Translations under genes and position numbers: made by a program | Origin: Amoebidium appalachense | Lineage: Eukaryota > Protista > Ichthyosporea | NCBI GenBank assembly: GCA_963693365.1 | Contig: CAVNZM010000003.1 | Span: 6,042,509-6,106,508 of the forward strand | Direction of reading: 5' to 3' | Length of the DNA stretch: 64,000 nt | The notes under the pieces: generated by a model | Told to the model about the DNA's origin: nothing | What the model saw: only the letters and a program-made list of their open reading frames with translations | Database searches by the model: none | In this document: positions 3,953-58,599 of the stretch, one piece after another | Layout: every line of letters begins with the position of its first letter | How positions within the stretch are numbered: the stretch's first letter is position 1

Positions 3953-3964
3953 ACTTGTCAGACT

Positions 3965-5188: not shown

Positions 5189-5211
5189 CGCAACATTTGC
5201 TTACAGCGCCG

Positions 5212-7579: not shown

Positions 7580-7745
7580 GGTTGCCAAAGACCATTGTAG
7601 CCGTCAGCCAAAGCCCTCCCGATTCTGCGGTGGGGCCTGCGGGGCTGGGGGGGGCTGGGAGGGGCGCCTGTGGCACACGTGCCTCGCGTGCCTCGCATGC
7701 CTCTCATGCCTCGCAAGCCCTGCGCGCCCCTCCCAGCCACCCGGG

Positions 7746-8042
7746 CTAGTGTCGGGTCCGATTCGGGCTCCCCGGTTCTTTGGTGTGCTGCTGCATGTGC
7801 CGCTTGAGGCTCAAGGCATACCGAAACTGCCGTCCGCACCCCGCATGCGCGCACACGTGCCGCAGAATCCCCGCATGCCTGTCGCTGTGCGCCGCAAAGT
7901 TGCTGTTGCGGGTGGTGGAGTAGCCGCAACCGTCGACTGTGCACCGATACACCTTGTACTCCTTGACCATGACTGGGCCTAGCTCAGACCTGCACGTGCA
8001 TGGAAACATTATGTTACTGAAGGAACGGAAAATATTTTCCAT
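7746..8042 (-). CDS. small protein with two C2H2 zinc fingers
   Basis: YRCTVDGCGYSTTRNSNFAAHSDRH and HVCAHAGCGRQFRYALSLKRHMQQH. Alternative ATG at 7970. Confidence 0.8.
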   Translation of the reverse strand: MENIFRSFSNIMFPCTCRSELGPVMVKEYKVYRCTVDGCGYSTTRNSNFAAHSDRHAGILRHVCAHAGCGRQFRYALSLKRHMQQHTKEPGSPNRTRH

Positions 8043-8234
8043 GGTCACGGACTCTGTCACTGCAGGTCGCTGCTGATTTGCCTGAGGGGCTGATGGTGGG
8101 TGACCTGTCTCCCTTGCTCCGCAGGCCCGCACGCAGGTATATAAGCACGCACCCGACCGGTTCCGGTCACAGTCTTGATCTTTGCTTCGAGTGTGACAGG
8201 CGACGACGAGAAAATATTTTCTATACAACCTGTA

Positions 8235-9668: not shown

Positions 9669-9686
9669 ACACCATGACGGTGCTAA

Positions 9687-9946
9687 TAGACACATAGACA
9701 GCTAGACACTTGACCCCGTACCTGTGGTAGGATGCCCCATGGACACCATTTGTATAGTAGGAATCGGATATTTTTACTCTTCCCCCCGACCGCCAATCCT
9801 GCTGTCTATGTGTCTATCTGTCTATGAACTCCTTATTTCATATATGTATTAACTATATTTATATATAAAAATGTATAGACACATACTAGTCACAAGCATT
9901 CCTCTAGACAGATCCGCTAGACAGGTCCATAGACACCTTCTAGACA
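9687..9946. promoter_or_regulatory. iteron-like TAGACA array around an AT-rich core (candidate replication origin)
   Basis: TAGACA at 9687, 9695, 9703, 9876, 9905, 9918, 9930, 9941; inverted TGTCTA at 9803, 9811, 9819; AT-rich 9833-9875. Confidence 0.6.
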
Positions 9947-10024
9947 CCATCGAAAAATGTCAACCGGGCAACCAACTCGTCTGAAGTCCGCCTGGTGCGG
10001 CCCAGGAATAAAAATTACAAACTT

Positions 10025-10057
<33 letters not shown>

Positions 10058-10058
<1 letters not shown>

Positions 10059-10312
10059 TACCACCTGTACACCAGCAGGCCAGCGAGCAGCACGAGCAGT
10101 ACCATGCATGCAAGCGCTATGCCCCTCCACATCGAAGCCCTCTTGAGCTGTGCATCATGGTCGTCCAATGAAGTGCCCATGTAGAGCATGAAGCGCGTGT
10201 TGTTGTCGATGGTCAGGTGGTACTCGTGCGGGTCGGCGGCAATGTCATCCCTGCGCACCCACGAGTTACTCGGGTTGTCAAATCTCAGGTTTGCAATGTT
10301 CGGAGAAGTCAT
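10058..10312 (-). CDS. small protein with C-terminal transmembrane anchor
   Basis: 84 aa ending GIALACMVLLVLLAGLLVYRW. Confidence 0.55.
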
Positions 10313-10392
10313 ACCTTCCGAAGAGATAGTTTGGAGCGCCCCCTCCCCAGCAACTCGGGGAGCACACACAGAGATTATGCATCGCAGTGCTA

Positions 10393-11326
10393 ATGGAACC
10401 TAAAAACCGCTGGGACGTAGGGCGCGCCAAGACGGAGGACGCACTGACGAGGTACATGGACAGGGTGTGCTCGGGTGAGGATCCGGAAGGAACATGGTGG
10501 TTTCTTCGATGGGGGGGGCTTCAGATGGCGGTTCCTGTAGTAATAGCAGGACCGCACATCGAACTTTGGAGTCTTCAAATCCAACACATAACGCGCGTAA
10601 AGGCCTCGGATTATGAGGTACCGTACAACTCCAACCCTCCCACTACCAACACAACCCGCAGCAGCCCACACATCTATGATATCTACAAGAGCGAGGATTA
10701 TGAGAGTCCGGACAACCCTCACCCCGCTGCCGACACGACCCTTAGTCCCTACGTCTATGAAATCTACATTTTCAGCCAGCCCAGAACTGAGTTGTTTCCC
10801 TATGATAATTTCTTCCATGAAAATTACAGCCGTCAAACCCCTCAAGACATTATTAAACAGACCAGGGACGGTTGGGTCTTTTGGAATGCATACGGGAATC
10901 CCGACCTGGACGAGGCCAAAAACACAGCGCCCGGTGTCTCGAGGAGGCCCTACTGGTTTATGCCCGAACTGCTCTTTGAGACCCTTGTCAAAGAACCGCC
11001 CCTGACCAAACCTCGGACCCTGCTCGAGTCAGCCTACCGCGCCGGAGTGTCGCACGGCGCGCCCACCACCATGGCCCCGGGCGGCGCAACCACCGAGGAC
11101 CTGAGCACAGCACTTGAAGATTGGGGTGAGCGCTGGCTTGACTATTTTTTCAAAGAGGTCGGCCAGCGTGGTGGAGGCAGCAGGGCTGCCGCTGCGCGAG
11201 GGTGTCTTTGACAGAGCCTACGGGCGCAACCGCAACCAGGAGTTCGAGGGGGTGGGTGCGGATTTTGATGAGTGGAACGAGGGGACCCCCTGGAGCAACG
11301 CGGGCAATTTGGGACATGCCTTATAG
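10393..11326 (+). CDS. hypothetical protein (ORF to 11211, possible frameshifted tail to 11326)
   Basis: Long intronless ORF with an internal repeat DYE.P....P...TT.SP..Y.IY. Confidence 0.55.
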
Positions 11327-12760: not shown

Positions 12761-13535
12761 ATGGACCAAACACCTGAAGAGGCCGTGGCTTTGCCTTTCA
12801 TCGTCCAGCCCCCCGGCTTGGACACGGACAAGGTCGTCGTCTATGCCGTGGACGACAAGTATCGGCTCCACCGGGACCCTGCCAGCGCTCGCCTGCTGGA
12901 AGTTGCGAGAGACGGCGACCTCCGCATCTTCGAAACACGGGAGAGCTTCGCTGCGTTCCGTTCAGTCCTTGAGAACGACATGAAAACTTTGCTGCTGCAT
13001 TTGCAGAGACAACCCCGCGGGCCTGGGCGGGTGCCGCCCCCTGGGACACTGTCTGCACTCCACGCGTCCCAATGTACGCCGCCTCCAGCGCTACGTGCTG
13101 GGGAAGCCGGACCATGAGGCTCTCCACGAGGGCACGCTCGGTCAAGGGGTAGGACTTCCTGCTCGTGGGGACGGGAGCGAGCGGTCCGGTCTCAAGGCCC
13201 GACCCCCTGCCCACTCAGTCAAGAGCCGGCCACACCGCCTTGGGTGCGAACGTTATGCAAGGACATGTCGAGTGGTGTACAATGATTGGCCCGGGCCGCG
13301 GCACGTGACGGGCCTCCGTGTCAGTCTCCAGGCCGCCGCCCGCGACACAAAGAAGTGCACCCGCGCAGAAACGCCACTTCTGCAATGCCATCTGTTGAAA
13401 CAAAGGGCCCGAGCACAGAAGGACTGCAAGGAGCAACCCACCCACCAAGACCCAATGGTGTCGAAAACGAGGCGTGGCACACCCTGGACAGCCCTGCGTT
13501 TCCACTCGGACCCGGTCTGCAACCTGATGCTTAAA
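12761..13535 (+). pseudogene. hypothetical gene, frameshifted and cut by the copia insertion
   Basis: ATG at 12761; overlapping ORFs 12686-13117 and 13095-13562 run into the LTR. Confidence 0.35.
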
Positions 13536-14288
13536 GTACTCCCGGCTAGCAATGTCTGTTAGAGAAAGTTTCTGAGCAATTGAATAACTGTTTCAACACT
13601 CACTCGAGTGCATAGAGCTTTTGTTTACGGTCATATTCATATATGGTAGTTATATGTTTGAGCCAAAACTGTACCAATGACGAGCTTCACTAGCAACGTG
13701 CTAATTGTGCTCATTAATTAATATTCCCGGTTCAGATGATGTCATGTCTATATTTGCCACAGGATTCTATTCTTAGAGTGGTAGTGTGCTTTATTCCCGG
13801 ATATTCTCAGAATATTTTTAGTTGTGTGAAGCAAGATTTACGTTTAACTGCAATTGGTGTGTTAAACACGTTTATTTGTGTGCTTTAGTGCAAGTTAACT
13901 AGCCACTCAACGTGCACAGTTAACTTTTATATCTTTAACGACTTGTTTTCATTGTGCTCTCTTTTCGGCCATGCTGTACATGGCCCACCACCAGGGTGCA
14001 CACGAGGCCACCATGAGGTGGCCAACGACTATATAAAGCAGTGCCTCATGGCATGTCACAAACATGGGAAGCAGAACGTTTGATTTACACTTTTCTACTG
14101 TCGTTTCCAGTGCACAAAACACATAGACTAGTTACCCATCATACACGACACTATGTCTGACAACTTACAGTTGCAGCAACTAGTCCAACTACTGGAGCAG
14201 AGGTTGGCCTCACAAGATGCAATCATTTCTGACTTACAGAAGGAACAACGTGCACTAGAACTAGCTTCTATGAACACAATGTCCAACA
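13536..14288 (+). repeat. 5' LTR lacking its first 15 nt
   Basis: Matches the 3' LTR from GTACTCCCGG onward; TATATAAA near 14030; one small indel near 14048. Confidence 0.95.
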
Positions 14289-15361
14289 GGGTTATGGGCC
14301 CCTCACGTAATGATTCCATCAAGTTCAAGGTCGACATCCCTCTCCTCACTGGCATTGATAATGATTCAGGCACGGACTACCACACATGGGCCGAAACCAT
14401 GTATGTCCAGCTTTCTGGTGCTGGTCTTCTCCACACCATCGCGCCCAGTACGGAGCACCCGGCTACCCGTGAACAGGTCGACACTGCCCGTTCCTACCTG
14501 TGGCAAGCACTCTCGGTTGACGTGCGTTGTATCCTAGGGTTAACACGCACCACCACACCTGCGGAGATATGGTCGGCCCTATCTGCCCACTACCTGGAGC
14601 AATCTGAGGCCAATCAGTACGACCTTATCGGGCTGTACATGAATTCTACGCCTGAACCTACGGACACCGCGACGAAATACGCCATGGAACTCCGCGGCTA
14701 CGTGCGGCGCCTGGCCGATTACGGCACACAAATTGGTGATGCTCAAGTGCTGACCAAGCTCACCAACGACCTCGGCAAGGTGCCTTACTACGAAATGCCT
14801 GTAATTGCCTACAAGATGACACCCAAGCCTACCGTGATGGGCCTCCTCCAACAGCTACGGGCATATGAGACCAGCCACCCACGTGCACGTGTGACTACCA
14901 GCTCCGGGCCGGCCGCCTTCACCACACGGGCTCCTCAACCTGTCATCTGCCACGGCTGCGGCAAACCAGGCCACATCAAGTCTCAGTGCCCCAACGGCAA
15001 CGGCCAACACAGCAACTCTGGCAACAACCGTGCCAGCACCTACCCCAAGGGTTCCTGCGTCAACCACCCACTGTCTACCAGTCACACTACCGCCATGTGC
15101 AAGGGGGGCAACCGTGCCAACGGCCGCAAACCTAAGGGTGGTCCCCTCCCGCCTGGGTCCTGCATCAACCACCCTGCCTCTACTACCCACACTACGGCAC
15201 AGTGCAAGGGGGGGCTGCCGCTCCCCGGGCTTTCCTCATGTCTAGCAACGACTGTGGCACCAACAAGGTGCTCCTCGACTCTGGAGCCACTGACCATGTG
15301 TGCCCCCGGCCCGATGTGTTCATCAACATGCGTGCGGCGCCTTACTCCACGGTCCAAGTAG
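14153..15361 (+). CDS. gag: copia Gag, starting inside the LTR
   Basis: Zinc knuckle CHGCGKPGHIKSQC plus two C-x2-H-x5-H-x4-C repeats. Confidence 0.9.
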   Translation: MSDNLQLQQLVQLLEQRLASQDAIISDLQKEQRALELASMNTMSNRVMGPSRNDSIKFKVDIPLLTGIDNDSGTDYHTWAETMYVQLSGAGLLHTIAPSTEHPATREQVDTARSYLWQALSVDVRCILGLTRTTTPAEIWSALSAHYLEQSEANQYDLIGLYMNSTPEPTDTATKYAMELRGYVRRLADYGTQIGDAQVLTKLTNDLGKVPYYEMPVIAYKMTPKPTVMGLLQQLRAYETSHPRARVTTSSGPAAFTTRAPQPVICHGCGKPGHIKSQCPNGNGQHSNSGNNRASTYPKGSCVNHPLSTSHTTAMCKGGNRANGRKPKGGPLPPGSCINHPASTTHTTAQCKGGLPLPGLSSCLATTVAPTRCSSTLEPLTMCAPGPMCSSTCVRRLTPRSK

Positions 15362-18300
15362 CCGACAAGGGTGCATGTGCAGTGCTTGGGGTGGGCGACG
15401 TGTTCTTTTCCAGCACCATCGACGGCGTTACTGCGGTGCATCAGCTGACGGATGTACTCTACGTGCCCTCCATCCCCGACACTCTCATCAGTGTGTTCAC
15501 GGCAACTACCAACGGTGTTTTACCCCGCTTTGACACCCGCGGCGGCGTTAAGTTGTGCTACGGCGATCAAATTCTGGCCACCGGCTCGGCTGTCGGCACC
15601 AAGCTGTACCACATGGCGGTGTCTCTTCTGCGCGCGGACACAACCCCGGACGCCCAAACCACCACTGCTCCGCGTATCCTCAAGGTTACTGCCGACCTCA
15701 ACACGTGGCACTACCGTCTGGGCCATGCTGGCATTGACGCTGTACGCTCGGTCATCAAGTCTGCAGGCCTGTTGGTGGGTGGCGGTGCCAAGTCTCCGGG
15801 TGTGTGTGAGCCCTGTGCCCTCGGCAAAGCCCACCGTGTTGCCTTCTCCGAATCAACTAGCCAAGCTCCCCGGGTCCTAGCCAAGGTTCACAGCGACATC
15901 AGCGGCCCCTTCCCTCCCGCGATCGGTGGTGCTCAGTACTTGGCGACGTTCCACGACGAATTCACCGGCCACACCACGGCCGTGCCCCTCGTCAAGAAGT
16001 CGGACACACTGGCTGCATATGTGACGTACCACAAGGCGGCGGTTACCCAACACGGTGTTCCCATGCAGGTGTTTCAGTCCGACGGGGGGGGCGAGTACAT
16101 GGGCACGGCCTTCGGGGACTACAACCGTGAGCATGGCATTCGCCATCAGATCACTACCACCGGCTCTCCTCAACAGAATGGGACTGCCGAACGACTGAAC
16201 CGGACCCTCCTCGACATGGTTCGGGCACTCCTGCAGCAGTCCGGCCTTCCGGTGGGATTCTGGGCCGAGGCAGCTGTGACCGCGGCTTTTATACGCAACA
16301 TGCTCCCGTCGCGAGCCACCGGCAGCCAATCGTCTCCCGCCCTGCTGTGGACCGGCATTCCTCCCGACTACAGCCGGCTCCGTGTCTGGGGCTCTCCCTG
16401 CTACGTCCATCAACAGGATACACCAAAACTGGCGCCTCGTGCCGTCAAGGGCATCTTCGTGGGCTACCCTCCTAACATCAAGGGCTACAAGGTCTGGATT
16501 CCAGCAGCACACAAGATGACCGTCAGCCGTGACGTGCAGTTCGACGAGGCTGCTATTCTGCACCCCCTCCGTGATGTCCCATCTGATTGGTCGACCGCAC
16601 CGGCAATTCATCATTTTTTGGAGTCATCTGATTCGTCAAATCAGCCAGCCAATCACATCGTCCGGAATGATCAGCAATCTGATTCGTCTCGTCTGTCAGC
16701 CAATGGGACAGCGCCGAGTGATCAATTGGACATTCCGATCCTGCCCGAGCCTGCACATCGGCTCCCCCGGACGACCCGTAGTGGCGCTGTGTACAACGAC
16801 CAACGTCGAGGCCCGACTGCCAACGTGGCTGCTGCTACGGCCCCCCTTGCCCCCCAGGCTACGGCTCCTGCATCAACACCCATCAAGGCTTCCACCATTG
16901 TTGTCCCCAAGACTGTCCGGGCTGCACTCAAGAGTCCCCAGCGTCTGAAATGGGAGGAGGCTGCACACCGTGAGCTCAAGGCCCTGGAAGACAACGGCAC
17001 CTTCACCCTTGTGCCCCGTCCAGAGGATGGCTCCACTGTCATTCCGGTCGGCTGGGTCTTTACGGTCAAGCAGGACAACGTCGGCAACGTCACTGCTTTC
17101 AAGGCCCGGCTTGTGGCCCGGGGCAACTACCAGCAGCCTGGCCAGGACTATTTCGTCACCGAGTCACCTGTGGCTGCGCTGGCTACCATCCGGCTGGTTT
17201 TGGCTACCTCCGTGGCCCAAGGTCTGCCTCTGCGCCACATCGACGTCAACACAGCATTCCTCAACGGCACCGTCAACGAGACCATCTACATTGAGCAGCC
17301 CCCTGGCTTCGTCAACCCCTCGGCCCCCCATGCTGTCGGCTTGCTCCACAAGGCGCTCTACGGCCTAAAACAGGCACCGCGCCAGTGGTATGAGGCCCTC
17401 CGTGACCATCTCCTCGACCAAGGCTTCATTGTGAGTGCTGCTGACCCGTGCCTGTTCATCAAGAATGCCGGGACCCCAACGTTTATTGCCCTTGCTGCCT
17501 ACGTGGATGACTTCACCGTGACGGCCGCCACTGATGCGCTCATCGACGATTTTTTCACCAAGCTGGATGCTCGTTTCTCTGCCAAGGACCTGGGTCGTCC
17601 TACCCTGCTCATCGGGCACACTCTTACCTGGCTGGAGGACGGGTCTCTGCGTCTGGGCCATCGTCAACACATCATCGACTTGGCTGCCCGTTTTCGTCTC
17701 ACCCACATGTCCGGCACCAAGACCCCCATCGTCCCGGGCCAGGCCAGTGAAAGCAACAAGACCCCAGCCTACAGCAAGAAGGAGGACTATGCCAGCCTGG
17801 TCGGTGCCCTGCTGTGGATTGCGCGTACCACCCGCCCCGACATTTCCCAGGCTCTGGGAGTCCTTACTCGACACATTCATGCGCCCACCGTCACCCACTG
17901 GACTATGGCTACCAGAGTTGTAAGCTACCTGCTGGCCACCATCGACCTGGGTATTGTCTACCGTCCCGGCCCCCCCAACCTTGTTGGCTACTCCGACTCC
18001 GACTACGCCGAGGACCGCGACACCCGGCGCTCCACCACGGGCTATGTCTTCTTCATCAACTCCTCCCCTGTGTCCTGGGTGTCTCGGCTCCAGTCCATCA
18101 CCACCCACAGCTCCACTGAGGCTGAATTTGTGGCCATGTCTGCTGCTACGAACGAGGCCCTATGGCTCAACTATGTGATGGACGACCTGGGCCTTAATCC
18201 TATCAATGAGCCCACCCCGGTGCCCATCCATGGGGACAATGAGTCTGCCCGGGCCCTGCTGGACACCCTGGGGGTTAAGCCCAAGACCAAGCACATCGAC

Positions 18301-18450
18301 GTCCGCTACTGCTCCGTCAAGGAACATCACCTGCTGGGCAACATCACTGTGGTCCCGGTGGCTTCTGCTGACAACAAGGCCGACATGTTCACCAAGGCCC
18401 TGTCTGCCTCCTTCTTCACCAAGGCCGTGGGGATGCTCAACATGTGCTGA
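15202..18450 (+). CDS. pol: copia Pol (protease, integrase, RT, RNase H), -1 frame relative to gag
   Basis: LDSGATDH; WHYRLGH..CEPC; HSDISGP, QSDGGGEY, QQNGTAER; YVDD; YSDSDYA. Confidence 0.95.
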   Translation: MQGGAAAPRAFLMSSNDCGTNKVLLDSGATDHVCPRPDVFINMRAAPYSTVQVADKGACAVLGVGDVFFSSTIDGVTAVHQLTDVLYVPSIPDTLISVFTATTNGVLPRFDTRGGVKLCYGDQILATGSAVGTKLYHMAVSLLRADTTPDAQTTTAPRILKVTADLNTWHYRLGHAGIDAVRSVIKSAGLLVGGGAKSPGVCEPCALGKAHRVAFSESTSQAPRVLAKVHSDISGPFPPAIGGAQYLATFHDEFTGHTTAVPLVKKSDTLAAYVTYHKAAVTQHGVPMQVFQSDGGGEYMGTAFGDYNREHGIRHQITTTGSPQQNGTAERLNRTLLDMVRALLQQSGLPVGFWAEAAVTAAFIRNMLPSRATGSQSSPALLWTGIPPDYSRLRVWGSPCYVHQQDTPKLAPRAVKGIFVGYPPNIKGYKVWIPAAHKMTVSRDVQFDEAAILHPLRDVPSDWSTAPAIHHFLESSDSSNQPANHIVRNDQQSDSSRLSANGTAPSDQLDIPILPEPAHRLPRTTRSGAVYNDQRRGPTANVAAATAPLAPQATAPASTPIKASTIVVPKTVRAALKSPQRLKWEEAAHRELKALEDNGTFTLVPRPEDGSTVIPVGWVFTVKQDNVGNVTAFKARLVARGNYQQPGQDYFVTESPVAALATIRLVLATSVAQGLPLRHIDVNTAFLNGTVNETIYIEQPPGFVNPSAPHAVGLLHKALYGLKQAPRQWYEALRDHLLDQGFIVSAADPCLFIKNAGTPTFIALAAYVDDFTVTAATDALIDDFFTKLDARFSAKDLGRPTLLIGHTLTWLEDGSLRLGHRQHIIDLAARFRLTHMSGTKTPIVPGQASESNKTPAYSKKEDYASLVGALLWIARTTRPDISQALGVLTRHIHAPTVTHWTMATRVVSYLLATIDLGIVYRPGPPNLVGYSDSDYAEDRDTRRSTTGYVFFINSSPVSWVSRLQSITTHSSTEAEFVAMSAATNEALWLNYVMDDLGLNPINEPTPVPIHGDNESARALLDTLGVKPKTKHIDVRYCSVKEHHLLGNITVVPVASADNKADMFTKALSASFFTKAVGMLNMC

Positions 18451-18636
18451 GCACCCGTCATCAACCAACTGCGCCCTCATACTTCAGGGGGGGGGAGAGA
18501 GTTGCATCCGACTGTGCAACTACGTGTACCATACTAAAATTGAGTAGGGGAATCTTTATTGTCTGTATTTTGTGCACCTGAAGCACTCGAGCTCAGTTGC
18601 ATTAATTCATACCACAATTATCCAATTGAGTAGGGG

Positions 18637-19401
18637 TGTTGGAGTACACTGGTACTCCCGGCTAGCAATGTCTGTTAGAGAAAGTTTCTGAGCAATTGAA
18701 TAACTGTTTCAACACTCACTCGAGTGCATAGAGCTTTTGTTTACGGTCATATTCATATATGGTAGTTATATGTTTGAGCCAAAACTGTACCAATGACGAG
18801 CTTCACTAGCAACGTGCTAATTGTGCTCATTAATTAATATTCCCGGTTCAGATGATGTCATGTCTATATTTGCCACAGGATTCTATTCTTAGAGTGGTAG
18901 TGTGCTTTATTCCCGGATATTCTCAGAATATTTTTAGTTGTGTGAAGCAAGATTTACGTTTAACTGCAATTGGTGTGTTAAACACGTTTATTTGTGTGCT
19001 TTAGTGCAAGTTAACTAGCCACTCAACGTGCACAGTTAACTTTTATATCTTTAACGACTTGTTTTCATTGTGCTCTCTTTTCGGCCATGCTGTACATGGC
19101 CCACCACCAGGGTGCACACGAGGCCACCATGAGGTGGCCAACGACTATATAAAGCAGTGCCTCCCATGTCACAAACATGGGAAGCAGAACGTTTGATTTA
19201 CACTTTTCTACTGTCGTTTCCAGTGCACAAAACACATAGACTAGTTACCCATCATACACGACACTATGTCTGACAACTTACAGTTGCAGCAACTAGTCCA
19301 ACTACTGGAGCAGAGGTTGGCCTCACAAGATGCAATCATTTCTGACTTACAGAAGGAACAACGTGCACTAGAACTAGCTTCTATGAACACAATGTCCAAC
19401 A
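18637..19401 (+). repeat. 3' LTR (765 bp)
   Basis: TGTTGGA...TCCAACA immediately after the PPT. Confidence 0.97.
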
Positions 19402-22313: not shown

Positions 22314-22391
22314 TGTTTCCCTCACCGCACCCACCACGAACCCCTAGCAATCGCCGTCACAAAAGTGCAGACCACATTCGAAATTTGGTAC

Positions 22392-23305
22392 GCATCCGGG
22401 CATGCAAATAATGCTAAGTGTGTGAGGCCGGGCATGCAAATATTGCTAAGTGTGAGGCCGGGCATGCAAAAAGTGTCTCTTCGGCAGGCCAAATAAATGC
22501 ATCCGGGCATGCAAATAATGCTAAGTGTGTGAGGCCGGGCATGCAAATATTGCTAAGTGTGTGAGGCCGGGCATGCAAAAGGTGTCTCTTCGGCAGGCCA
22601 AATAAATGCATCCGGGCATGCAAATAATGCTAAGTGTGTGAGGCCGGGCATGCAAATATTGCTAAGTGTGTGAGGCCGGCCATGCAAATAATGCTAAGTG
22701 TGTGAGGCCGGCCATGCAAAAAGTGTCTCTTCGGCAGGCCAAATAAATGCATCCGGGCATGCAAATAATGCTAAGTGTGTGAGGCCGGCCATGCAAATAA
22801 TGCTAAGTGTGTAAGGCCGGCCATGCAAAAAGTGTCTCTTCGGCAGGCCAAATAAATGCATCTGTCTCTTCGGCAGGCCAAATAAATGCATCCGGGCATG
22901 CAAATAATGCTAAGTGTGTGAGGCCGGCCATGCAAATATTGCTAAGTGTGTGAGGCCGGGCATGCAAAAAGTGTCTCTTCGGCAGGCCAAATAAATGCAT
23001 CTGTCTCTTCGGCAGGCCAAATAAATGCATCCGGGCATGCAAATAATGCTAAGTGTGTGAGGCCGGCCATGCAAATATTGCTAAGTGTGTGAGGCCGGGC
23101 ATGCAAAAAGTGTCTCATCGGCAGGCCAAATAAATGCATCCGGGCATGCAAATAATGCTAAGTGTGTGAGGCCGGCCATGCAAATATTGCTAAGTGTGTG
23201 AGGCCGGCCATGCAAATATTGCTAAGTGTGTGAGGCCGGGCATGCAAGAAGTGTCTCTTCGGCAGGCCAAATAAATGCATCCGGGCATGCAAATAATGCT
23301 AAGTG
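22392..23305. repeat. composite satellite A (GCATGCAAATAATGCTAAGTGTGTGAGGCCGG / GTGTCTCTTCGGCAGGCCAAATAAATGCATCCGG)
   Basis: Interleaved ~32-bp and ~43-bp modules. Confidence 0.95.
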
Positions 23306-23335: not shown

Positions 23336-32517
<9,182 letters not shown>

Positions 32518-35840: not shown

Positions 35841-36872
35841 TCACTTAAGAATAGAGGCGAATACACGTGTGGTGGTGGCAGCAATGAAGGCCGGACGAAG
35901 TCGGGTATAGATCAGGAAGCAGTCGGAGGACCACCGGCCGAGTTGTTTGATCCGGGAGTCGTCGACCCCGGCCTCAGCCAGTGCTGTGGCCCCCCCGATG
36001 CGGAGGCTGTGTCCGGCAAACCGGGAGGGTGAGAGGCCTGCCCGGGAGAGGAGGGCACGGAAATCGGCAGAGAAAGCACTCTTGGTGTAGGGGATGCCAC
36101 CGAGACTGAAGAGGGGGTCGTCGGGTTGACCGGACGTTGTATCCAGGAACTGCCGGAGGAGATGGGCTGGGGAGAAGTGGGTGAGGGGCAGGGCAGCTAG
36201 GGTGACGTTGACACCTCGGGCCTGTACATCCGTTTTAGAGGTTGGCAGGTGGAGGGTGGCATGGGACAAAGTACCGGTGGGGGTGTAGCTGAAGGTCACG
36301 TCCTTCCGTTTAACGTGACGGGACGGGTCGAAAGAAGTCAGGGTCTTGGAGGTAAATTCCCCTGAACGGAGGAGACCACAGAAACCGACGATGAGGGCCG
36401 TCCATAGCCGGAGATTGGCCGAGGAGGCCTTGGTGGGGCACTGGCCGTGGAGTAGGCGGAGGTGGGAGGGGAGGAGGGGTTCCCTGGTGGATGAGCGGGG
36501 TCGGATGTTGTGAGAAAGCTGCCATCGGCCTACCCCCCGTAGGAACCAGGCCAGAGACTTGTCGTGGGGGTAGGGAGCAGGGAGGCCCATGTCGAGGTGG
36601 AGCCTGGTGATGGCCGAATTGTAGCCGGTTAAGGAAGAGGCCTGTACCCCTCGTTGGGCGCACCAGGCGAGAAAAAGTTGCACGGTGTGTGGGGAGGCCG
36701 GGAGGGAGGACCCGGAGGAGGATTGCAGCCGAGATGCCACACAGAAATCGATGAACACTTTTTGCACCCGGGAGTAAAAGGCCCGAGAGTCGAGGTTGAG
36801 ACTCAGGGCCTGGCATTCCTGCAGGGTAGTGGTGGCTCGAAGCAGCTCGGCCGGAGCAAAGTGGGGGGCCAA
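35841..36872 (-). CDS. tyrosine recombinase
   Basis: LLRSGEF, SKTD, GHSLRIGGAT and LGRWSSDCFLIY give the full catalytic set. Confidence 0.93.
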   Translation of the reverse strand: MAPHFAPAELLRATTTLQECQALSLNLDSRAFYSRVQKVFIDFCVASRLQSSSGSSLPASPHTVQLFLAWCAQRGVQASSLTGYNSAITRLHLDMGLPAPYPHDKSLAWFLRGVGRWQLSHNIRPRSSTREPLLPSHLRLLHGQCPTKASSANLRLWTALIVGFCGLLRSGEFTSKTLTSFDPSRHVKRKDVTFSYTPTGTLSHATLHLPTSKTDVQARGVNVTLAALPLTHFSPAHLLRQFLDTTSGQPDDPLFSLGGIPYTKSAFSADFRALLSRAGLSPSRFAGHSLRIGGATALAEAGVDDSRIKQLGRWSSDCFLIYTRLRPAFIAATTTRVFASILK

Positions 36873-36926
36873 TCTGCCAGTGTTGCTCCGGAACGGGAGA
36901 TCTGGGGGGGGGGGGGGGGGGGGGGT

Positions 36927-38609
36927 TTAGCCCAAGGGAAGGGATAGGAACTCGTGGACCCAGGAGGGGAAGGGGCAGGGCTCCGGTTGCAGGGAAGGTC
37001 GGAGTCGTCGGGCCCGGGGAAGTTGGTTACGAGAAATGGCATCGGCCAGATGGTTGAGGGGTCCTGGTAGGTAGGATGCCTGTAACGTGAATTGGTATTG
37101 CATTTCCATGCGGGTGATGAACCGAATAAGTTTGGCCATCACGGGGTGGGGGGAAGACCGGGAGTGCAGGTCAGACACAGCACCCGTGTTGTCGCATAAA
37201 ATACGGACATGGTGGGTGTACCAGGAGGGGGCCCAGAGGGCCACGGCGGCTGCGATGGCCAGGAGTTCGATGACGGAAGAACCGAGTTTACCCTCATGAG
37301 CATAGAGGGCTTGGGTGGAGGGGGACCAGGGCATGAAGAACCATTGGTCGAGCCAGTGGCCACCTAGACCCACCGATCCGGCAGCATCAGTGGCCAGGGT
37401 GGTGTATGTGGGGGGTGTGATGAGGTGCACCCCATTCCATGATGTGAGGAACTGGTGCCATTCGGCTATGTCGGCCCGGGCGGCAGCAGTCAGTCGTATG
37501 TGGTGGTGGCCGGCAAGGTGTGGGTGGGTCCGGAGAAGGGCCCAGAGGCGCTGGGAGAAGGCCCTCCCGGGGGGAACCAGCTGGGCACACCAGGTGAGTT
37601 TGCCGAGGAGGGACTGGAGGTCCCAAATGGTGATGGTGGGCTTTGGGTGGGAAGTGAGGTCGAGTAGGTCCGAGAGCTTGGAAGCCGGGATTCGTGCCTC
37701 CATGGCGATGGAGTCGAATTCGATACCGATGAAGACGACACGGGTAGCCGGGACCTGCATCTTGTCTTCGGAGATGGCAATGTGCAGCTCTCGGCAGAGT
37801 TGCAGGAAGGTGGATAGGTGACGTTGGCACTGCTGTTGTGTGGGGGCGACTATAATCCAGTCGTCTACGTAGTGGCGGATGAGGGTAATACCGTGCTGGT
37901 GTGCCAGCCACTGTAGGGTGGCCGCGATCCGTTCCCAGATGGCTGGGCTAGATTTCAGGCCGAAGGGCAGTCTGGTTTCAACGTAAAAATGCCCTTGCCA
38001 TTTGAATGCCATTAAGTGGTGGTCTTCCGGTCGGATGGGCATGTGCCGGAAGGCAGCCTGCACATCTGCCACGGCCATGTAGCAGCCGGGGCCTGCGTCG
38101 AGAATGAGTTGGGTGACATCCCGGGCGCGAATGTACTGAAGTTCGTCGGGGTAGGTGATGCTGTCATTGACACTGCTACCCCGGGGCCAGGAGAGGTGGT
38201 GGATTCGACGGTACTTGGGGGGGTTCCCTTTCTTGGTAACGGCGCCGATGGGGGAGGAACGGTGGACGGGAAATTCGTCAAAGAATTGGGCCGGGGAGAG
38301 GGGGCCGCGCAGGTGGCCGAGGGCGACTTCTTTGGCAATATCCACCGTGATAGCGGCAGCTGCCTCCGGGGTGGTGGGTAGGTTGGGGCCCACCCGAGAG
38401 GTGGAGGGGCCGCGATAGCCGATGTCGACGCCGAATTCGACATCGTGGAGGAGTTGTGCGGCGAATGGTTGGTCCGGGTAGGAGGCCAGCAGTTCCCGGA
38501 GGCGGGAGGTGTCAATGTGGTGCTGGGGCAGCGGGCGGGCCTCCGGGTCTGAGCCTCGGGGGAAGGGGTGGTTAGCAAGGGTGGTGTGCCCTTGGGGAGA
38601 TCCCGGCAG

Positions 38610-38674
<65 letters not shown>

Positions 38675-38789
38675 CGGGGCCCCGGGGGGTTAGAGTAGGG
38701 CAGCTTGGCCCAAGTGAGGGTTGGCAGGGAGGGCAGCGGGGCCCTGTGCAGGGGAATGTGCCCGAGCACGCGGGGGTGTGGGCGGACAC
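36927..38789 (-). CDS. pol: DIRS/Ngaro RT-RNase H (5' end uncertain)
   Basis: YRRIHHLS, LPFGLKSSP, HYVDDW; RNase H TDAAG, IELLAI, CDN, NHLADAISR. Confidence 0.92.
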
Positions 38790-39064
38790 AGCGGTAGAAG
38801 AAGGGGGGGGAGGGAGTGCTAGGTGAGTGTAAGGGGGGGGGGAGGCTCGTGGGATGGGGGGGGGAGTAAAATTATGTGCAGTGGCCAGAATAAACGTCTT
38901 TGTATAGGGACATTTATTCTTGACGCGCGCGGGCGCCGTAGTTGGCCTGCGAAATTTTGTACTCAGCCCTATTGGCCCGTTCTCCCGAGCTCCGTTTCCC
39001 TGTACTCGTGTGTCCTAGCTCCGAACCCCTATGTTCTAGCTGTGTGTGTGGGTGTGCGCGTAGA

Positions 39065-40234
39065 CTAGGCATTGTGCTTGCAGTCTTTGCGGGGGTGTGT
39101 GCCAGAGCAGAGCGGGCACACGTGGGAGAAGGGGCAGGGCTGCTTAGCGCAGGACCGACCGTTAATGTGGAAATTCCTGCAGTGCGTCGCATGTAGATCC
39201 ACGGGTCGGGCCGGTTTTGCCGGGCCGGGTTGCGGGCCAGGGCGGTTAGGGGTGTGACCCCCGCCGGGCTTGTGGGGCGGCTTAAAGCCGTCAAGACCAC
39301 AGCCGGGCTTGGGGTACATGGGGCAGGCCGCGCTGGGGTGGTCGGGGAAGCCACAGCGCTGACATGCGTCCTGGATGAGCAGGGTGGGTGGCAGGAGGAG
39401 ATCCTGGTGGAGTTGGGCGAGCAGGTTGGGGCACTCGATCGGAGCCCGACCCTGCTGGTGGGCCACGGTGCGGGCGTATACGTCATAGTTGTGAATCTGG
39501 GCCCACGGGTATCGGGTGCTGAGGCGAGTGATGTGCTGAGTCCAAAGTACGTCTTTGTCCGTGGGAAGGCCGAGGTGGTGCTTGGCGGCCATGTAATGGG
39601 TCCAAGCTTGGATCCAAATGACGAGTGAACGCAGGGGAACGGGTTTGTCTTGGCGAAAAGTCTCGATGCTGCCGTCGTCGGCCATGCGCAGATGCTGACC
39701 TTTCTTGGATGGGGCCAGGAGGGCGGCGGGGGTGAACTTATACAGGTCGACGAAACGATTGGCGCGCAAATCTGCCAGCACATCCGCGGGGGGAAGCGGG
39801 AGTGTGCCCGGCTGAATGTCGCCAGTGTTCTCACCTGTGATGGGGGGCGCGGGCAGGGCAGGCAGGTCAAGGTCAGGGCCGAGATGCAGCCCCGGGGAAA
39901 CCTCCCCGGGTGTGGAGGGCGCGGAGGGGGGCGCGGGAGGGTCGCGGTTGGTGAGAGCAGCCAGGACGCCAGCCATCTGGGTGCTGATGGCGGTGAGGGC
40001 GGCCAGGACGGCGTCTTGAGAAGTCATCTGCGGGGACGGCGGGGCCTGAGGGGGGACTTCAGGGGTGGAGGGGAGAGTCGCCGGCGGGTCCGGGTCCGTG
40101 GTGGTATGGGCCGCTGGAGGCGCGTCAGTGTCCGCGGGAGCGTTGGTCAGCCTGTGGCGGAGGTCGCTGCGGGTCAGGCGCTTAGGTGCCGCGGCAGGGG
40201 CGGCGGCTGAGGCCTGGCGCTTTTTCGGCGGCAT
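39065..40234 (-). CDS. gag: Ngaro Gag-like ORF1
   Basis: FVDLYKF..WIQAW..W...YD; zinc motifs CQRCGFPDHPSAAC and CRNF..C..C..HVCPLCSGTHPRKDC. Confidence 0.85.
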   Translation of the reverse strand: MPPKKRQASAAAPAAAPKRLTRSDLRHRLTNAPADTDAPPAAHTTTDPDPPATLPSTPEVPPQAPPSPQMTSQDAVLAALTAISTQMAGVLAALTNRDPPAPPSAPSTPGEVSPGLHLGPDLDLPALPAPPITGENTGDIQPGTLPLPPADVLADLRANRFVDLYKFTPAALLAPSKKGQHLRMADDGSIETFRQDKPVPLRSLVIWIQAWTHYMAAKHHLGLPTDKDVLWTQHITRLSTRYPWAQIHNYDVYARTVAHQQGRAPIECPNLLAQLHQDLLLPPTLLIQDACQRCGFPDHPSAACPMYPKPGCGLDGFKPPHKPGGGHTPNRPGPQPGPAKPARPVDLHATHCRNFHINGRSCAKQPCPFSHVCPLCSGTHPRKDCKHNA

Positions 40235-40573
40235 GCTGACCGGCGTAGGGAAAGATAGGGAGAATGAAAAGGAATGAAAAGGAATATATAGCTGTAAGGC
40301 TGTGGATGCTAAACACAGAAGATGTGTTTGTAGCTTGCTTCTCTATTTCTATGTGAAATCTAATCCGAGCCAATCATAACTCGGTCTAGTGATCTGTGGT
40401 ATCTGATGTTTTGACTGGCTAATAGGTGCCCGTGTGCGGGCAGCCAACCGCTAACTGCTAAAACACGAAATGAAGCCTACATGGCTATGTTGGTATCGAA
40501 CACCCATCCTACGTGGTTACCCAGAAAAATATTTATGTCAATAATTTCCACAAATAAAACCTCGACACAAAAA

Positions 40574-40790
40574 ACACCCCACACACCGAACACTAGCACG
40601 GCACAAGCACCCCCCACACCGAACACTAGCACAACAAAAACCCCCACACCGAACACTAGCACGGCACAAGCAACCCCCACACCGAACACTAGCACAACAA
40701 AAACCCCCACACCGAACACAACACCAACACAAAACCCCCCATACCGAACACAACACCAACACAAGCACCCCCACACCGAACACAACACCA
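40574..40790. repeat. CACACCGAACACTAGCAC minisatellite
   Basis: About 30-bp units. Confidence 0.85.
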
Positions 40791-41245
40791 ACGACACTTT
40801 TTGCATGCCCGGCCTCACACTTAGCATTATTTGCATGGCCGGCTCACACACTTAGCATTATTTGCATAAGAGACACTTTTTGCATGCCCGGCCTCACACA
40901 CTTAGCATTATTTGCATGCCCGGATGCATTTATTTGGCCTGCCGAAGAGACACTTTTTGCATGCCCGGCCTCACACTTAGCAATATTTGCATGCCCGGCC
41001 TCACACACTTAGCATTATTTGCATGCCCGGATGCATTTATTTGCATGCCCGGATGCATTTATTTGGCCTGCCGAAGAGACACTTTTTGCATGCCCGGCCT
41101 CACACTTAGCAATATTTGCATGGCCGGCCTCACACATTAGCATTATTTGCATGCCCGGATGCATTTATTTGGCCTGCCGAAGAGACACTTTTTGCATGCC
41201 CGGCCTCACACTTAGCAATATTTGCATGGCCGGCCTCACACACTT

Positions 41246-41383
41246 AACAACCGCACCTAAAACCGATGCAAACAAGTCAAGGGAAACGGTAAAGAATTTC
41301 GCACCAGAGATGGTCATTGCCTTTTGACATTGTTGGCATACAATCTGTATGAATGTCTTTGCTTCTTCACTTCCGTCATACCA
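41246..41383 (-). pseudogene. Orco: 46-codon fragment of the insect odorant receptor co-receptor C-terminus
   Basis: [46 protein letters not shown], almost identical to the conserved insect Orco C-terminus as I recall it. Confidence 0.9.
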
Positions 41384-41574
41384 CAAAGCAATGAATTTGT
41401 AAGCATAAAATTAATTTCCTCTTTAACATATTTCATTTTAATAACCTTCGTCATAACAATTTGAGCTCGTCCACCCATCGAAATTATGTTTAGGTCATCA
41501 CCTTTCCCCTCATCATTTTCTTCTTTCCATGCAACACACAAAATAATTAATTAATTACATACAATTCCCCTTAC

Positions 41575-41695
41575 GGATTTATTTTTGGGTTAATTCTTGA
41601 TAACAATGTGGCTGATGCATGAACACATCCAATGCTCGCACACTCTTTGTACTGCTTCTGACACTTTGCAAGTTTTGAACTTTTTAGCAGCAAGA
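41575..41695 (-). pseudogene. fragment resembling an M13/neprilysin N-terminal exon, followed by a GTAAG donor
   Basis: KECASIGCVHASATLLSRINPKINP resembles C...C..AA..LL..M...V.PC; then CC|GTAAGG and AT-rich intron-like DNA. Confidence 0.55.
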
Positions 41696-42871
41696 CTCAC
41701 ACACTTAGCAATATTTGCATGGCCGGCCTCACACACTTAGCATTATTTGCATGGCCGGCCTCACACACTTAGCATTATTTGCATGCCCGGATGCATTTAT
41801 TTGGCCTGCCGAAGAGACACTTTTTGCATGCCCGGCCTCACACTTAGCAATATTTGCATGCCCGGCCTCACACACTTAGCATTATTTGCATGCCCCCCCC
41901 CCCCCCCCCCCCACACCCACCCCCCCCCCCCCCCCCACCCCACCCACCCCCCCCCCCCCCCCCGTGTGCCACCCGTGCCACGTGTGTCTCCCAGTCACGT
42001 GCACCACGCCCCCAGTGGTGGCAGTGAGTGTCTTAATAGTGCCATGCCAGCTGCGCCTTCCTCACCTGCCCCCTGCCCCAGCCGTCCAGCCAGCCTCCCG
42101 CCCTGCCGGAACCACGCCCCCAGTGGTGGCAGCGTGTGCTTTATCAGTCAAACAGTCTCACTGTGAGTGCCTCCTCTGCCCCCCCCGGCCCCCCCATCCC
42201 CCCCCGGCCCCCCATCCTCCCGGAACCAGGCCCCAGTGGAGTCTCTTAGTATACGTGACCATGGCCATATGCATACATAACATTTTTTCATGCTGTGAGG
42301 GGCATGCCAGTCTCCCCTGCCTCCCTGCCTCCCCCTGCACGTGTGCCCCCCTGCTGCCCGGAACCAGGCCCCCCAGTGGTGGCATCAGGCCCCCCCGTGC
42401 CGGCATGCCTCACCTGCCCCCGTGCCCCCCGCCCTCCCGGAACCAGGCCCCCCAGTGGTGGCAGTGTGTGTCTTACAAGCTAGTGATTTGCTATTATATG
42501 GCCACATGGCCACATGGCCAGATCATTTTGGCTCCCGTTTTATCCCGTTTTATCCACATTTTTGCACACACTGAATTTGATCTGGCCATCTGGCCATCTG
42601 GGTATAGACCGTTTTCTGTTCTAATATTGGAGAACTGTCTGATAGTGATAGAAAATGAAATGTGGAAGAATAATCGGGAAAGGTCGTCACGTGATAGATT
42701 TTCGGAAGTGATCTACTGGACAGAGCGAAGCAATAGTGATAGAAAATGAAATGTGGAAGAATAATCGGGAAAGGTCGTCACGTGATAGATTTTCGGAAGT
42801 GATCTACTGGACAGAGCGAAGCAAGCGGGCGCTGGGGGGGGGGGGGGGGGGGGGGGGGGAGGGGGGGTACG

Positions 42872-44886
42872 TACTTCTTGGTTGGTCTCGGTATCGTCGC
42901 TCTGTCGGGCCGACTTGCGCTTTGGGGACGGGGACTCCTCGCCGCGCTTGCCGGACAACTTGGTCTTCGACTTCTTGACTGTCAGCGCCGCCTCCTCTTC
43001 ATCACTGGTGGATGCCCGCCGCTTAAGTCTCGCCAGCTCCTGCTCCATCTCCGAAACTTGCCCTTTGAGGTGCTGCACTTCGTCCACAACTTGGGGGTGC
43101 TGAATAATGCCAACGGCGCCAGACTCAGCCCCGTATGCGGGCTTCCGATCAACCTGGGGAAAAAAGAGGGTAGAAATGTCAGCATTTACTGCTGACACTT
43201 TTATGTGAAAACGGCATTCGAACAACGAAAACAAGGAAGAGTTAACGTGAAACGAAAAAGAAACATGGATGGTGCAAAAGGGTACACAACAAGATATAAA
43301 GGGTATTACAAAAGGTAACAATGGATATCAACAAGGTGTAGATATGTTATCAGCATGTTATCCTATGGTGACATTCGTTTACCAATGTAAGCAACGTGAT
43401 ACACTTTGAATGACAAAAAAAAGAAAGTAATTTATTTCTCACCAGTACTGCGCAGGTCGGTGGCGAGACGGTAACGGTCAACGTCCAGAACAAACCAATC
43501 TTTGCACCCACACAAACGAAGCTTCGGGAAAAGAGAGAGAACGGCAGGAGAACCATAGTTGGAGGCAACAGCATAGTTTGGTTCCAAGTTAAACCCAAAA
43601 TGAAGTGTGTGTGGTGTCACAAACACCAGGTCTCCGGGTTTCTGCACAATGAACGTGTACTCTATCTTTAACTCGTCGAGCATGTCGAGTGAGAGAGGGA
43701 TTGTTTTTGTGCAGGAGAACACTTGTGCAGTGTGTGTACTTTGTGAGTTTATGCATCTGCCTAGTGATCTTTAAAAACGCATCCTTTTCACAAATAACCC
43801 AAAACTTTGGTCCCCCAGACAAGAGCAAGTTATGTGCACCCAAGCCACTGTCTTCTATATGCATGCAAAAAAAGGTTGCAAGCAACTTCCCAGCCTGACC
43901 CCGAAACAAAGCATGCATGTACGCCCAAGGGCTGTTAACACCAGGAATCTCCTCCCCGTAGAACTGAACACCCAGAGGAGAAATATCACACACTTGATTG
44001 AATGAAGGGGGACAAGAGGCCTTAGAAACAGAAACGTCTGCAAGATACGCACCACCAGAGTTTTCTACAGCATACTTGTACAAAGCCTTAAAAGCATCCC
44101 TACTCATATCTATTGGGAAGTCGTACTTGGAGGTGTATGCTTTCGTTTGGCAAAAGTCTACGTGTTTGTTTTTCCTTACGACCTCACCCCAACCGTTGGA
44201 GGACACGACTGAGTGAACCTTCCCATTTGCAAAAAGAGATGCAGGTATGCATGCAAGTGCATCTCCCATGGAAATGGGTTCACAAAACCCACGAATAACA
44301 CCACCCAACTTCCCATCATTCTCAATTCCATAAAAAAATGAAAGTGCAGCAGCTGGTGTGAGCATTGTGCCTTGTGAACAGGAAAGTGTGAGGGTAAACT
44401 GGGAAGGGGAAAGGGAAAGAAAAGCAAAAACAAAAAACAAACAAATAAAAAATAAAAAAATGATACTCGAGAATACAAGCTCGAGGGAAAGTGACAACAA
44501 CGAACCGTGGAACGTCGGCTTATGCGGTGGAACTAACTATGTGGGAGGGCACAGCACACGGACCAAAAAAAGGGAAAAGAAAACATACCTTGGGGTCTGG
44601 CATTGAACGTTCTGGCGACGTAGGCGCCGAGCAGGCCCTTGCCCCTTTGGCCGTCACCGTGTCGCTGGCTGAACTCCTTCTGCGCCTCTAGCGCAGCCTT
44701 CCTCGAGGGCGGAAGGGCATCGTCCACGCTCTCGCTCGACGACGACTCGGAGTTAGAGCCGAAGGAGGGTTCTCTCTCTTTCCTTTTTTTATCTTTCCCA
44801 TTCACGAACTTTTGTTTCTTTCTCCCTTGCTTTGCAGCTTCCTCTGCAGCCGCTGCGGCCTTTGCCTGCTTTTCCTTTTTCCCCAT
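42872..44886 (-). CDS. second KDM4-like JmjC gene (one frameshift in an A run; 3' exons uncertain)
   Basis: Exons 44886-44589, 44532-44506, 44370-43443, probably 43152-42872. IPGVNSPWAY, FCMHIEDSGLGAHN..GPKFW, QKPGDLVFVTPHTLHFGFN, CGC. Extra base at 43704-43708. Confidence 0.82.
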
Positions 44887-47794: not shown

Positions 47795-48139
47795 GGGCTG
47801 AGGGGGCCCTGGCGGGGTGGGGGGGGGGTGTGGGGGTGAAGGTAGCTGTACGCCACAGTATGGGGTAAAAAGTATGATATGACGTCATGTCTGTCAGCGT
47901 GTATGGTAGTGTACGGTATGGGTGTGTGTGTGTGCGTGTGCGTGGGTGTGTGTATGTGTATCAGTGTCACCGTGAGAGTTCAGGTTCAAGGTACATGATA
48001 CACAGGTTGTCACACAACTTCGTTTGTCCACGCGTACACACTACTTCTCGCATAGACTACTAGTAGTATGCAGCATTATTTTAGTTACTCAAGTATGTGT
48101 ATTAAAGCTTAGCTTAGTAGTATTGCAGGGCAAACAAAG

Positions 48140-56957
<8,818 letters not shown>

Positions 56958-57424
56958 GTTTTGTACACACCACGCCAGATGCGTGGCGCAATCAACTTCA
57001 CGTGTACTTTTTGTTATTAGCTTGGTTCGAATGGTGTAACCTTATTGTAACATAGATAACATGCTGGTGTATGAATGTTATGCATGTACATACATTATGA
57101 CGTGCGTCTGATAGCACAGATAACATTACGTGTATCATACTGTTAACCCTGTAAACAACAGTGTGTGTACCATAATTATACGTTTGATATCCGAATGATA
57201 TAAATGGTACCTGTGGTATCCCGAATAAACTGTGCGAAGGCCCATCATCCGGGTATCCTTGCAGCATCAGCCATTAAAAATAGCCAATCAAAGGCCAGAG
57301 GGCAATTGGAATAATGCTGAGAATCCCACAATCGCGCCACCAATGCACTTTGCCGCCATAAAATTGCCCAGGGATCTGCCACTCTCCCGAGGGACTCTGC
57401 CGATGCGCGGGTTCTTGTACCTGA

Positions 57425-58599
57425 TATAGCTAACAATTTACACACATTTACATTATCATCTAAACCTGTACCTATAGTTCCAGAATACAAATATCTTGGT
57501 GTTCCGGTTGATTCTGTTGGTGTTATGTTTCCCCATATGGTCGAAAAGAGGGTAGAGTTGGCTCGTAAGCGGTTAGCTTTCTTCTCGGCTAATATTTTTA
57601 AAGACACACCCCTCCATCCTTCTATTAGACTTACATTTATTCGCACTTTTGTCTTCCCGGCATGTGAATATGGTTTACCCCTTCTCGCCGCTTGGATCAA
57701 GAAAGAGAGAACTAGAGCGCTTAAACCCCTGGCAAATTTCCTTGAAGCAGAAGTTGCCTCCTTTCTATCTAACAACTGTTGTAAACCTGGGCCTGTAACG
57801 CTCTCGATATATGGTCTGGTCCCAATAGCTGCTAGAGTATCCTATCTCGCGCTGAAATTCAATAAGCACATAAGCCGCTTAAAGAAGTATTTGCCCTCCC
57901 ACCCTCTCTTCTCTATCCGACCTGTCCCCTCCTCACCTCTCCCCTCTTTCCTCCCCCTCTCTCTCCCCCTCTCCCCTGGGCACAAATACAAATAAACCCC
58001 GCAATAGTGTGTGTGTGACTTTGGACTGCCACTTACTTGTTAAACATGTACACAATCACAAGATAATCACGCAATATAACAAATGGAAAAAGATACCACA
58101 CGACACTAGACCCGATGAAAGCATACACCTTGAAAAACTAAGCCTTATGTCTCGTTTTATATATACTGACCGCCTCAACCATATTGCCAAATATGGCACT
58201 CGCAAGTGTATAACACCTAAATACATATTACCTTCCTGTAGAACTGGTCTTTCTCTAGCTGATGGTATTATTGATCAATTACCACGCTTTTACTGTACAC
58301 GTGCTATACAGTGGAGATCTAATAAGTATAAGGTGGCATCATTTGCATGCCCAAACAACACACACACACACCAGTTTAACCGGTCATGTATCGCCAAATG
58401 TAGTTTGATAGACCACATAATACCGCAACACACACACGTCACATTCACAACAGACACCCAGAAAGATAGCCTACCTGTAAATTACAACATCCTTGATTTT
58501 ATACTAAACACGCGTAACTACGACCTGTTTATTAGATGTATTGATTGGCTTGAGAAACACATCACTACAAAATTATAGCGCACGCGCACACACACACAC

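Follow-up and report, generated by a model that had tools for sequence, protein, structure and literature searches.

The window, i.e., the whole 64-kb stretch of DNA that was analysed, contains Copia and DIRS-like retroelements, two JmjC genes, a D5-like primase, a tyrosine recombinase and a Plavaka transposase. It also contains a satellite array that is split by an AT-rich insert with the same 12-mer on either side, as the sequence-only reading had noted. That reading gave the span of the insert as 41246-41695; the insert is real, but it starts at 41247, as the left 12-mer ends with position 41246. The features of the locus are as follows:

40790..41246, plus strand: host satellite, left arm, 30-32-bp units between 47-bp heads
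41235..41246, plus strand: left 12-mer CTCACACACTTA, end of the 40-bp flank repeat 41207-41246
41245..41246, no strand: microhomology TA, 2 bp, common to the satellite and the Orco donor contig
41245..41383, minus strand: piece 1, interior of the last Orco exon, 139 bp, ends 10 codons before the stop
41247..41695, minus strand: composite insert of three midge DNA pieces, 449 bp, 36% GC
41379..41383, no strand: microhomology TACCA, 5 bp, common to the Orco and WDR6 donor contigs
41379..41536, minus strand: piece 2, interior of a WDR6 exon, ~158 bp, residues 694-744 of the Chironomus protein
41537..41695, minus strand: piece 3, M13 peptidase exon and intron start, 159 bp
41696..41707, plus strand: right 12-mer CTCACACACTTA, 40-bp flank repeat at 41700-41739
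41696..41895, plus strand: host satellite, right arm

The GC content of the insert is 36% (33-42% for the single pieces) compared to 52.6% for the whole window, and 1.4% of 1271 sliding 450-bp windows were equally AT-rich. Within the 64-kb window no 14-mer was common to the insert and the remaining sequence. All 449 bp of the insert were covered by three pieces of DNA. The original proposal of two unlinked arthropod fragments was right about their origin and lack of linkage but not about their number, as the middle piece (WDR6) had been missed. As to the accompanying statement that nothing else in the window is insect-like, inspection covered the other AT-rich islands and their open frames, none of which was recognised as insect.

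Piece 1 had been read as 46 codons of the insect Orco C-terminus (41246-41383, minus strand), and the comparison to solved Orco structures bore this out with 44 of 46 residues identical in the five alignments shown (7 hits, E ~1e-24 to 2e-22). The Pfam family 7tm_6 (PF02949) was found with E=1e-9 and 38.2 bits relative to a cut-off of 25.8. Among the 120 homologues listed of 249, the only representative identical in 46 of 46 residues was Chironomus riparius; Orco of C. tepperi, which belongs to the C. riparius cluster, was identical in 46/46 and that of Polypedilum in 44/46. The piece is a fragment of 46 codons and not a whole seven-helix Orco subunit (~480 aa with start and stop).

Piece 2 is an internal fragment of WDR6, a regulator of tRNA 2'-O-methyltransferase, and is homologous to named WDR6 proteins. 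Its 52 open codons matched C. tepperi in 47 and C. riparius in 46 residues. None of the 8 proteins aligned, one of which lacks the region, was an exact match, the best being the 47/52 of C. tepperi. In JGI metagenome contigs 243 pattern hits were obtained for relatives of this piece and 0 were confirmed. The end of piece 2 at position 41536 was taken from a loose end of the donor-like run X13 (described below) over a one-codon gap.

Piece 3 had been taken for an M13 peptidase exon with its GTAAG donor, which agrees with 35 of 39 residues identical to a Polypedilum M13 peptidase and GTAAG at 41574-41570 (codon phase 2). The coding part (41695-41575) corresponds to the first coding exon minus its first ten codons and is followed by the first 38 bp of the intron (41574-41537), beginning with GTAAG. 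The best relative was found in residues 12-50 of Polypedilum P0123, a protein with PF05649 and PF01431. This piece was identified by protein search alone (1 hit of 4 candidates) and gave by itself no Pfam and no PDB hit. It stops at the start of PF05649 (residue 50), and the M13 catalytic domain is absent from it.

All three pieces read in sense on the minus strand, with no stop codon over 138 codons. The reading frames break between the pieces, each of which lacks a start codon and a complete domain. The ends of the pieces fall regardless of exon ends, no spliced exon-exon joint is found in the insert, and poly-A is absent, the insert ending within the Orco coding sequence. Without a start codon or complete domain in any piece, the insert gives no ground for predicting a function and is likely inert filler, not a gene. 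Nor does it have the intact open reading frame of a functional horizontally transferred gene. Three runs from organism B guessed to be RNA had a share of the sampled words of 0.00, which is not proof of absence.

Identification of the donor taxon had been proposed as a check, and by comparison of proteins and sequencing runs the donor could be narrowed to the genus Chironomus. Run X13 (organism C, midge-like) had zero depth over the satellite-only bins. It carried the three pieces on three separate contigs of 4838, 6885 and 491 bp, each piece being flanked by unlike DNA. The 4838-bp contig matched 41245-41383 in 139 of 139 nucleotides, including 5 intact CpGs, and its loose ends read as intron-free Orco sequence to either side. 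With 0 differences over 139 nucleotides, the upper 95% bound on the divergence of piece 1 is 2.1%. The 6885-bp contig matched 41379-41521 with 9 differences and runs on as WDR6, its residues agreeing with C. riparius P0126. The 491-bp contig was identical in 138 of 157 nucleotides (41537-41693, 19 differences), with the intron aligned too, and its loose end contains the M13 start codon that is missing from piece 3. The loci are also unlinked in named midges: in C. riparius Orco and WDR6 are located on different chromosome-scale contigs (58.9 and 61.4 Mb), and the same is true for Orco and the M13 gene in Polypedilum (36.9 and 31.4 Mb).

The capture is recent, since piece 1 is without differences from the midge run and the pieces are without stops. 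The 10 listed of the 19 differences in piece 3 hit 9 codons, 8 of which are changed synonymously. These differences are therefore best read as divergence on the donor side, from a paralogue or a second species, and not as decay after insertion. For piece 2, seven of the nine differences from the X13 contig bunch within 11 bp (41469-41479). Here the residues encoded in the window are those of C. tepperi and other midges, and those of X13 are the ones of C. riparius; the cluster thus looks like a multi-base change on the riparius side. On these comparisons the donor would be a Chironomus near to, yet distinct from, organism C. Four other organism-C runs contained 0.26-0.29 of the sampled words, the upper value being equal to the share expected from pieces 1 and 2 by themselves (0.30). 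Shares of 0.32 in an aquatic metagenome and 0.05-0.15 in fish-gut, sediment and plastisphere runs were obtained. None of these small shares was counted as evidence.

Two of the four joints show microhomology, i.e., 2 bp between satellite and Orco and 5 bp between Orco and WDR6. The WDR6/M13 and M13/satellite joints have ~0 and 0 bp, respectively, and look blunt, the donor copies compared being non-identical. The chance of at least 5 bp of microhomology at one of four joints is ~0.03. The flanking 12-mer is part of the satellite unit, with 8 copies on the plus and 14 on the minus strand of the window, and is therefore weak evidence of a target-site duplication. For a 32-bp unit, 44% of random break pairs would show an apparent duplication of 7-20 bp by chance. 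This satellite also forms another array on the opposite strand (~22390-23300), which lacks an insert. When the empty site was modelled on that array, a duplication matched 40+46 bases and a 20-bp deletion 37+58 bases. The duplication model needs 4 units between heads instead of 5, where the other repeats have 0-3; the unit counts thus favour duplication slightly. The 12-bp repeat was considered as proof of a retro-event and rejected, given the 44% chance and the equally good fit of the deletion model. A diverged 62-bp relative of the satellite was found at 28450-28980, and a 23-base satellite word had no exact match in JGI metagenome contigs.

The joined form of the insert was searched for in 24 listed runs. 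Eight runs contained 0.91-0.97 of the 65 sampled words; they derive from organism codes A and B, five sample codes and three study codes, and from the years 2011 and 2024. Mapping at the level of contigs covered four of the 24, i.e., X1, X3 and X5 (one per study code) and X13. A single contig carried the insert in X1 (523 bp, 41217-41739, depth 247), X3 (509 bp, 41217-41725, depth 143) and X5 (502 bp, 41224-41725, depth 41), with 0 other letters in all three. Both internal joints were bridged by more than 100 letters per side in each run. The contigs reach 30/44 (X1), 30/30 (X3) and 23/30 (X5) bases into the satellite to the left/right and stop where the repeat starts branching. By the rule of 31 letters on each side only the right satellite junction in X1 is bridged, the other five having 23-30 satellite letters. 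The short contigs fix the insert to this satellite family and not to this array. No intact midge copy was present in the host runs at an identity of at least 85%. Since none of the loose ends in X1, X3 and X5 runs on as Orco, WDR6 or M13, these runs reflect neither midge contamination nor a host that is itself an insect. The assembly may stem from one of the three studies, which would leave two others, and the runs may represent one clonal strain.

Over 41140-41800 the depth ratio of satellite to insert was ~4 in X1 compared to 75 and 138 in X3 and X5, summed contig depth being a rough measure; the contig totals were 49, 205 and 158 million letters, respectively. The insert may be enriched in X1 if this is an RNA or open-chromatin library.

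Pieces 1, 2 and 3 are 139, 158 and 159 bp long, respectively. Mononucleosomal DNA of dying cells is described with a core of 145-147 bp and a chromatosome of ~167 bp, and ~158 bp is also given (PMC9497998). The three lengths lie around the 145-147 and 167 bp sizes, with n=3 from one event. The chance that three pieces fall in any 40-bp band is 0.005-0.06 depending on which of three flat priors is used, for a band chosen post hoc.

Amoebidium grows on midge larvae. The related Paramoebidium hamatum was described from Chironomidae (PMC7270078), and ichthyosporeans are described as osmotrophs (PMC11286789). The published inventory of Amoebidium agrees with the Plavaka transposase, D5-like primase, JmjC and tyrosine-recombinase genes of the window (PMC11244446). 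The earlier suggestion of a symbiont or parasite genome is consistent with both gene inventory and ecology.

We consider it probable that mononucleosome-sized pieces of degraded midge chromatin were end-joined into a double-strand break in the satellite and remain there as inert filler. The recipient would be an inhabitant of midge larvae, on their surface or inside, and is likely to be an ichthyosporean such as Amoebidium. Chromatin cut between nucleosomes would be released from larval tissue that dies or moults, and the fragments would then get through the walled osmotroph cell into the nucleus. There they may have been linked end to end and used by NHEJ or microhomology-mediated joining to close a staggered or resected satellite break, and the resulting allele would have been passed on clonally. 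The earlier notion of filler captured in break repair is in keeping with the junctions. A DNA template is favoured because the intron is kept, the ends ignore exon borders, poly-A is missing and the genes are likely of low abundance as transcripts. What speaks against DNA is that all pieces are coding and co-oriented, which would be easier to explain from RNA; the orientation alone has a chance of 1 in 4. With a genome of which about one-eighth is coding, random pieces are unlikely to be all coding. Nucleosomes are enriched on the GC-richer exons, and this, together with ascertainment through Orco, accounts only in part for the finding of coding sense pieces only.

The same structure could have been formed from midge RNA by a host LINE-type reverse transcriptase or by polymerase theta. 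Priming would have occurred at a satellite nick, the enzyme would have jumped from Orco to WDR6 and then to M13 pre-mRNA before splicing, and a 12-bp target-site duplication would have been left. Non-LTR enzymes are known to perform template jumping, retroelements are present in the window, and all three pieces are exonic and in sense on one strand. The Orco and WDR6 pieces each have their microhomology at the 3' end, which is expected of priming and jumping, and the site is flanked by a 12-bp repeat with an empty site matching the other array over 40+46 bases. However, such a duplication is apparent by chance in 44% of cases, and the 20-bp deletion (37+58 bases) fits equally well. Intron loss was not observed: 38 bp of the M13 intron are kept, and pieces 1 and 2 are uninformative in this respect, as they span no intron in X13. 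Neither poly-A nor a spliced joint is present, and uniform sizes of 139-159 bp are unexpected for RNA. The Orco, WDR6 and M13 transcripts are also likely of low abundance, unlike rRNA, haemoglobin or cuticle RNA. Altogether, we regard an RNA origin as rather unlikely. Joining of DNA ends is retained in a different form if the sizes are coincidental, or if the pieces were joined beforehand in a go-between such as a DNA virus or a mobile element. Uptake of insect host DNA by viruses via microhomology has been described (PMC4735498), virus-like intronless genes (D5-like primase) are found in the window, and the difference between piece 3 (138/157) and piece 1 (139/139) in their identity to X13 allows for more than one donor. 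A paralogue suits piece 3 equally well, though, and we found no viral or transposon sequence inside or adjoining the insert, the 449 bp of which are filled by the pieces. Sizes clustering by chance have the probability of 0.005-0.06 given above. Also this alternative is unlikely.

An assembly or library chimera, or contamination with midge DNA, would be in line with the location of the insert within a repeat, where misassembly is common, with five of six satellite junctions falling 1-8 letters below the bridging rule and with four of the 24 listed runs having been examined by contig. It is, however, very improbable, as three study codes and both years, 2011 and 2024, yielded the same joined sequence at depths of 41-247, with internal joints bridged by more than 100 letters per side and no branch into intact midge genes. 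A chimera could only touch the choice of satellite array. As far as short-read contigs allow, the chimera that the sequence-only reading had named as the alternative is refuted, and the contigs of X1, X3 and X5 spanning the insert uphold its proposal that unlinked arthropod fragments were truly integrated into a genome that is not an insect's. That the window is itself part of an insect genome, with the insert as an endogenous rearrangement, is hardly credible: the host runs are without intact Orco, WDR6 and M13 at an identity of at least 85%, the midge-like run is without the satellite, the GC content of the window is 52.6% as opposed to 33-42% for the pieces, and the Plavaka, D5-like primase, JmjC and tyrosine-recombinase genes match the Amoebidium inventory (PMC11244446).

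Taken as joined midge chromatin, the insert resembles several known systems. The mosaic insertions of organelle DNA described as numins (numts/nupts; PMC6215612) also consist of several unlinked foreign fragments joined with blunt ends or a few bases of microhomology, which is ascribed to NHEJ at a break. The insert shares with these the unlinked donor loci (three X13 contigs) and the blunt or short-microhomology joints. Their donor is an organelle, whereas that of the insert is an insect nuclear genome from outside the cell, and its pieces are each of about one nucleosome. The insert thus works like a numin, yet is none since its donor is a foreign nucleus. The mosquito polyubiquitin gene in Zancudomyces culisetae (PMC5026252) is likewise DNA of a dipteran larval host in an associated microbial eukaryote. 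That case is described as one whole, old and GC-ameliorated gene with a proposed function, while the insert appears very recent and non-functional and consists of three exon fragments with readable joints. Moth DNA in the baculovirus AcMNPV (PMC4735498) is joined through 1-20 bp of microhomology or blunt ends. There the recipient is described as a virus replicating in the host nucleus, with mostly transposon inserts that are quickly purged; in the present case it is a cellular eukaryote, with an insert that persists over the 13 years between the runs of 2011 and 2024. Mononucleosomal DNA of dying cells is proposed to enter other mammalian cells and integrate, possibly by NHEJ (PMC9497998). This was described in the laboratory and within mammals, whereas the capture of midge chromatin would be natural, inherited and cross-lineage. 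Amoebidium itself tolerates foreign DNA in the form of giant-virus, adintovirus and Plavaka-repeat insertions (PMC11244446), and the same kinds of genes are present in the window. The main text of that paper deals with viral and repeat insertions and does not mention animal host DNA ('host DNA' occurs 0 times and 'insect' in a reference only). Transfer from dipteran host to symbiont (PMC5026252) and viral capture of insect DNA by microhomology (PMC4735498) are, as described there, already known. Searches of the open-access literature listed no paper on nuclear fragments from a midge or another animal in an ichthyosporean, and none on a host mosaic of several nucleosome-sized fragments in the genome of a microbial eukaryote.

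It is possible, and we put this forward tentatively, that a microbial eukaryote dwelling on midge larvae routinely captures nucleosome-sized host chromatin into breaks in its own chromosomes. If so, many such mosaics would be present in the genome and form an archive of past hosts at the level of species. The earlier notion of a record of past hosts has this one event behind it. Such capture would also show how gene transfer from animal to microbe begins, at a stage that selection has not yet reached, and would prove from nature that distant eukaryotes exchange cell-free chromatin which is then inherited. The passage of DNA from animals to other eukaryotes is otherwise inferred mostly from old, eroded genes. 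The freshness of the insert makes donor genus, piece sizes and joints legible per base, and the midge run provides the unjoined originals. The insert also shows that insect-like sequence in symbiont assemblies, though usually filtered as contamination, is real in some cases.

The remaining part of the window contains mobile and virus-like sequences. None of 8 ORFs from the window occurs in the protein collection searched. About 0.9 kb to the left of the insert lies the DIRS-like retroelement (35841-40342, minus strand) with long open gag (CCCH-like), RT and tyrosine recombinase frames. The Copia element (13530-19080, plus strand) has long open gag and pol frames by Pfam and near-identical AT-rich terminal repeats with 99-100% of 20-mers in common; it appears to be a recent insertion. 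A partial extra copy of the Copia gag start is found at ~19245-19400. Two ORFs at 57321-58578 (plus strand) had no Pfam hit; from a motif we take them to resemble the C-terminal part of a non-LTR retroelement. The Plavaka transposase lies in pieces over 48113-56957 (plus strand), with PF18759 at 49570-49962 and 50409-50726, and the pieces are parted by long microsatellite- and poly-C-rich stretches that resemble introns. An intronless virus-like cluster (3497-11211) includes a C2H2 zinc finger, the D5-like primase/helicase (8145-9668; nearest relative 61% identical), a class III aminotransferase-like ORF (5768-7579) and a fibre-like repetitive ORF (3965-5200), in which 117 bp are duplicated exactly in tandem. 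The JmjC-domain genes or fragments at 23655-24125 and 43589-44536 (minus strand), for which generic JmjC clusters were obtained with a low recognition score, are each located close to satellite arrays.
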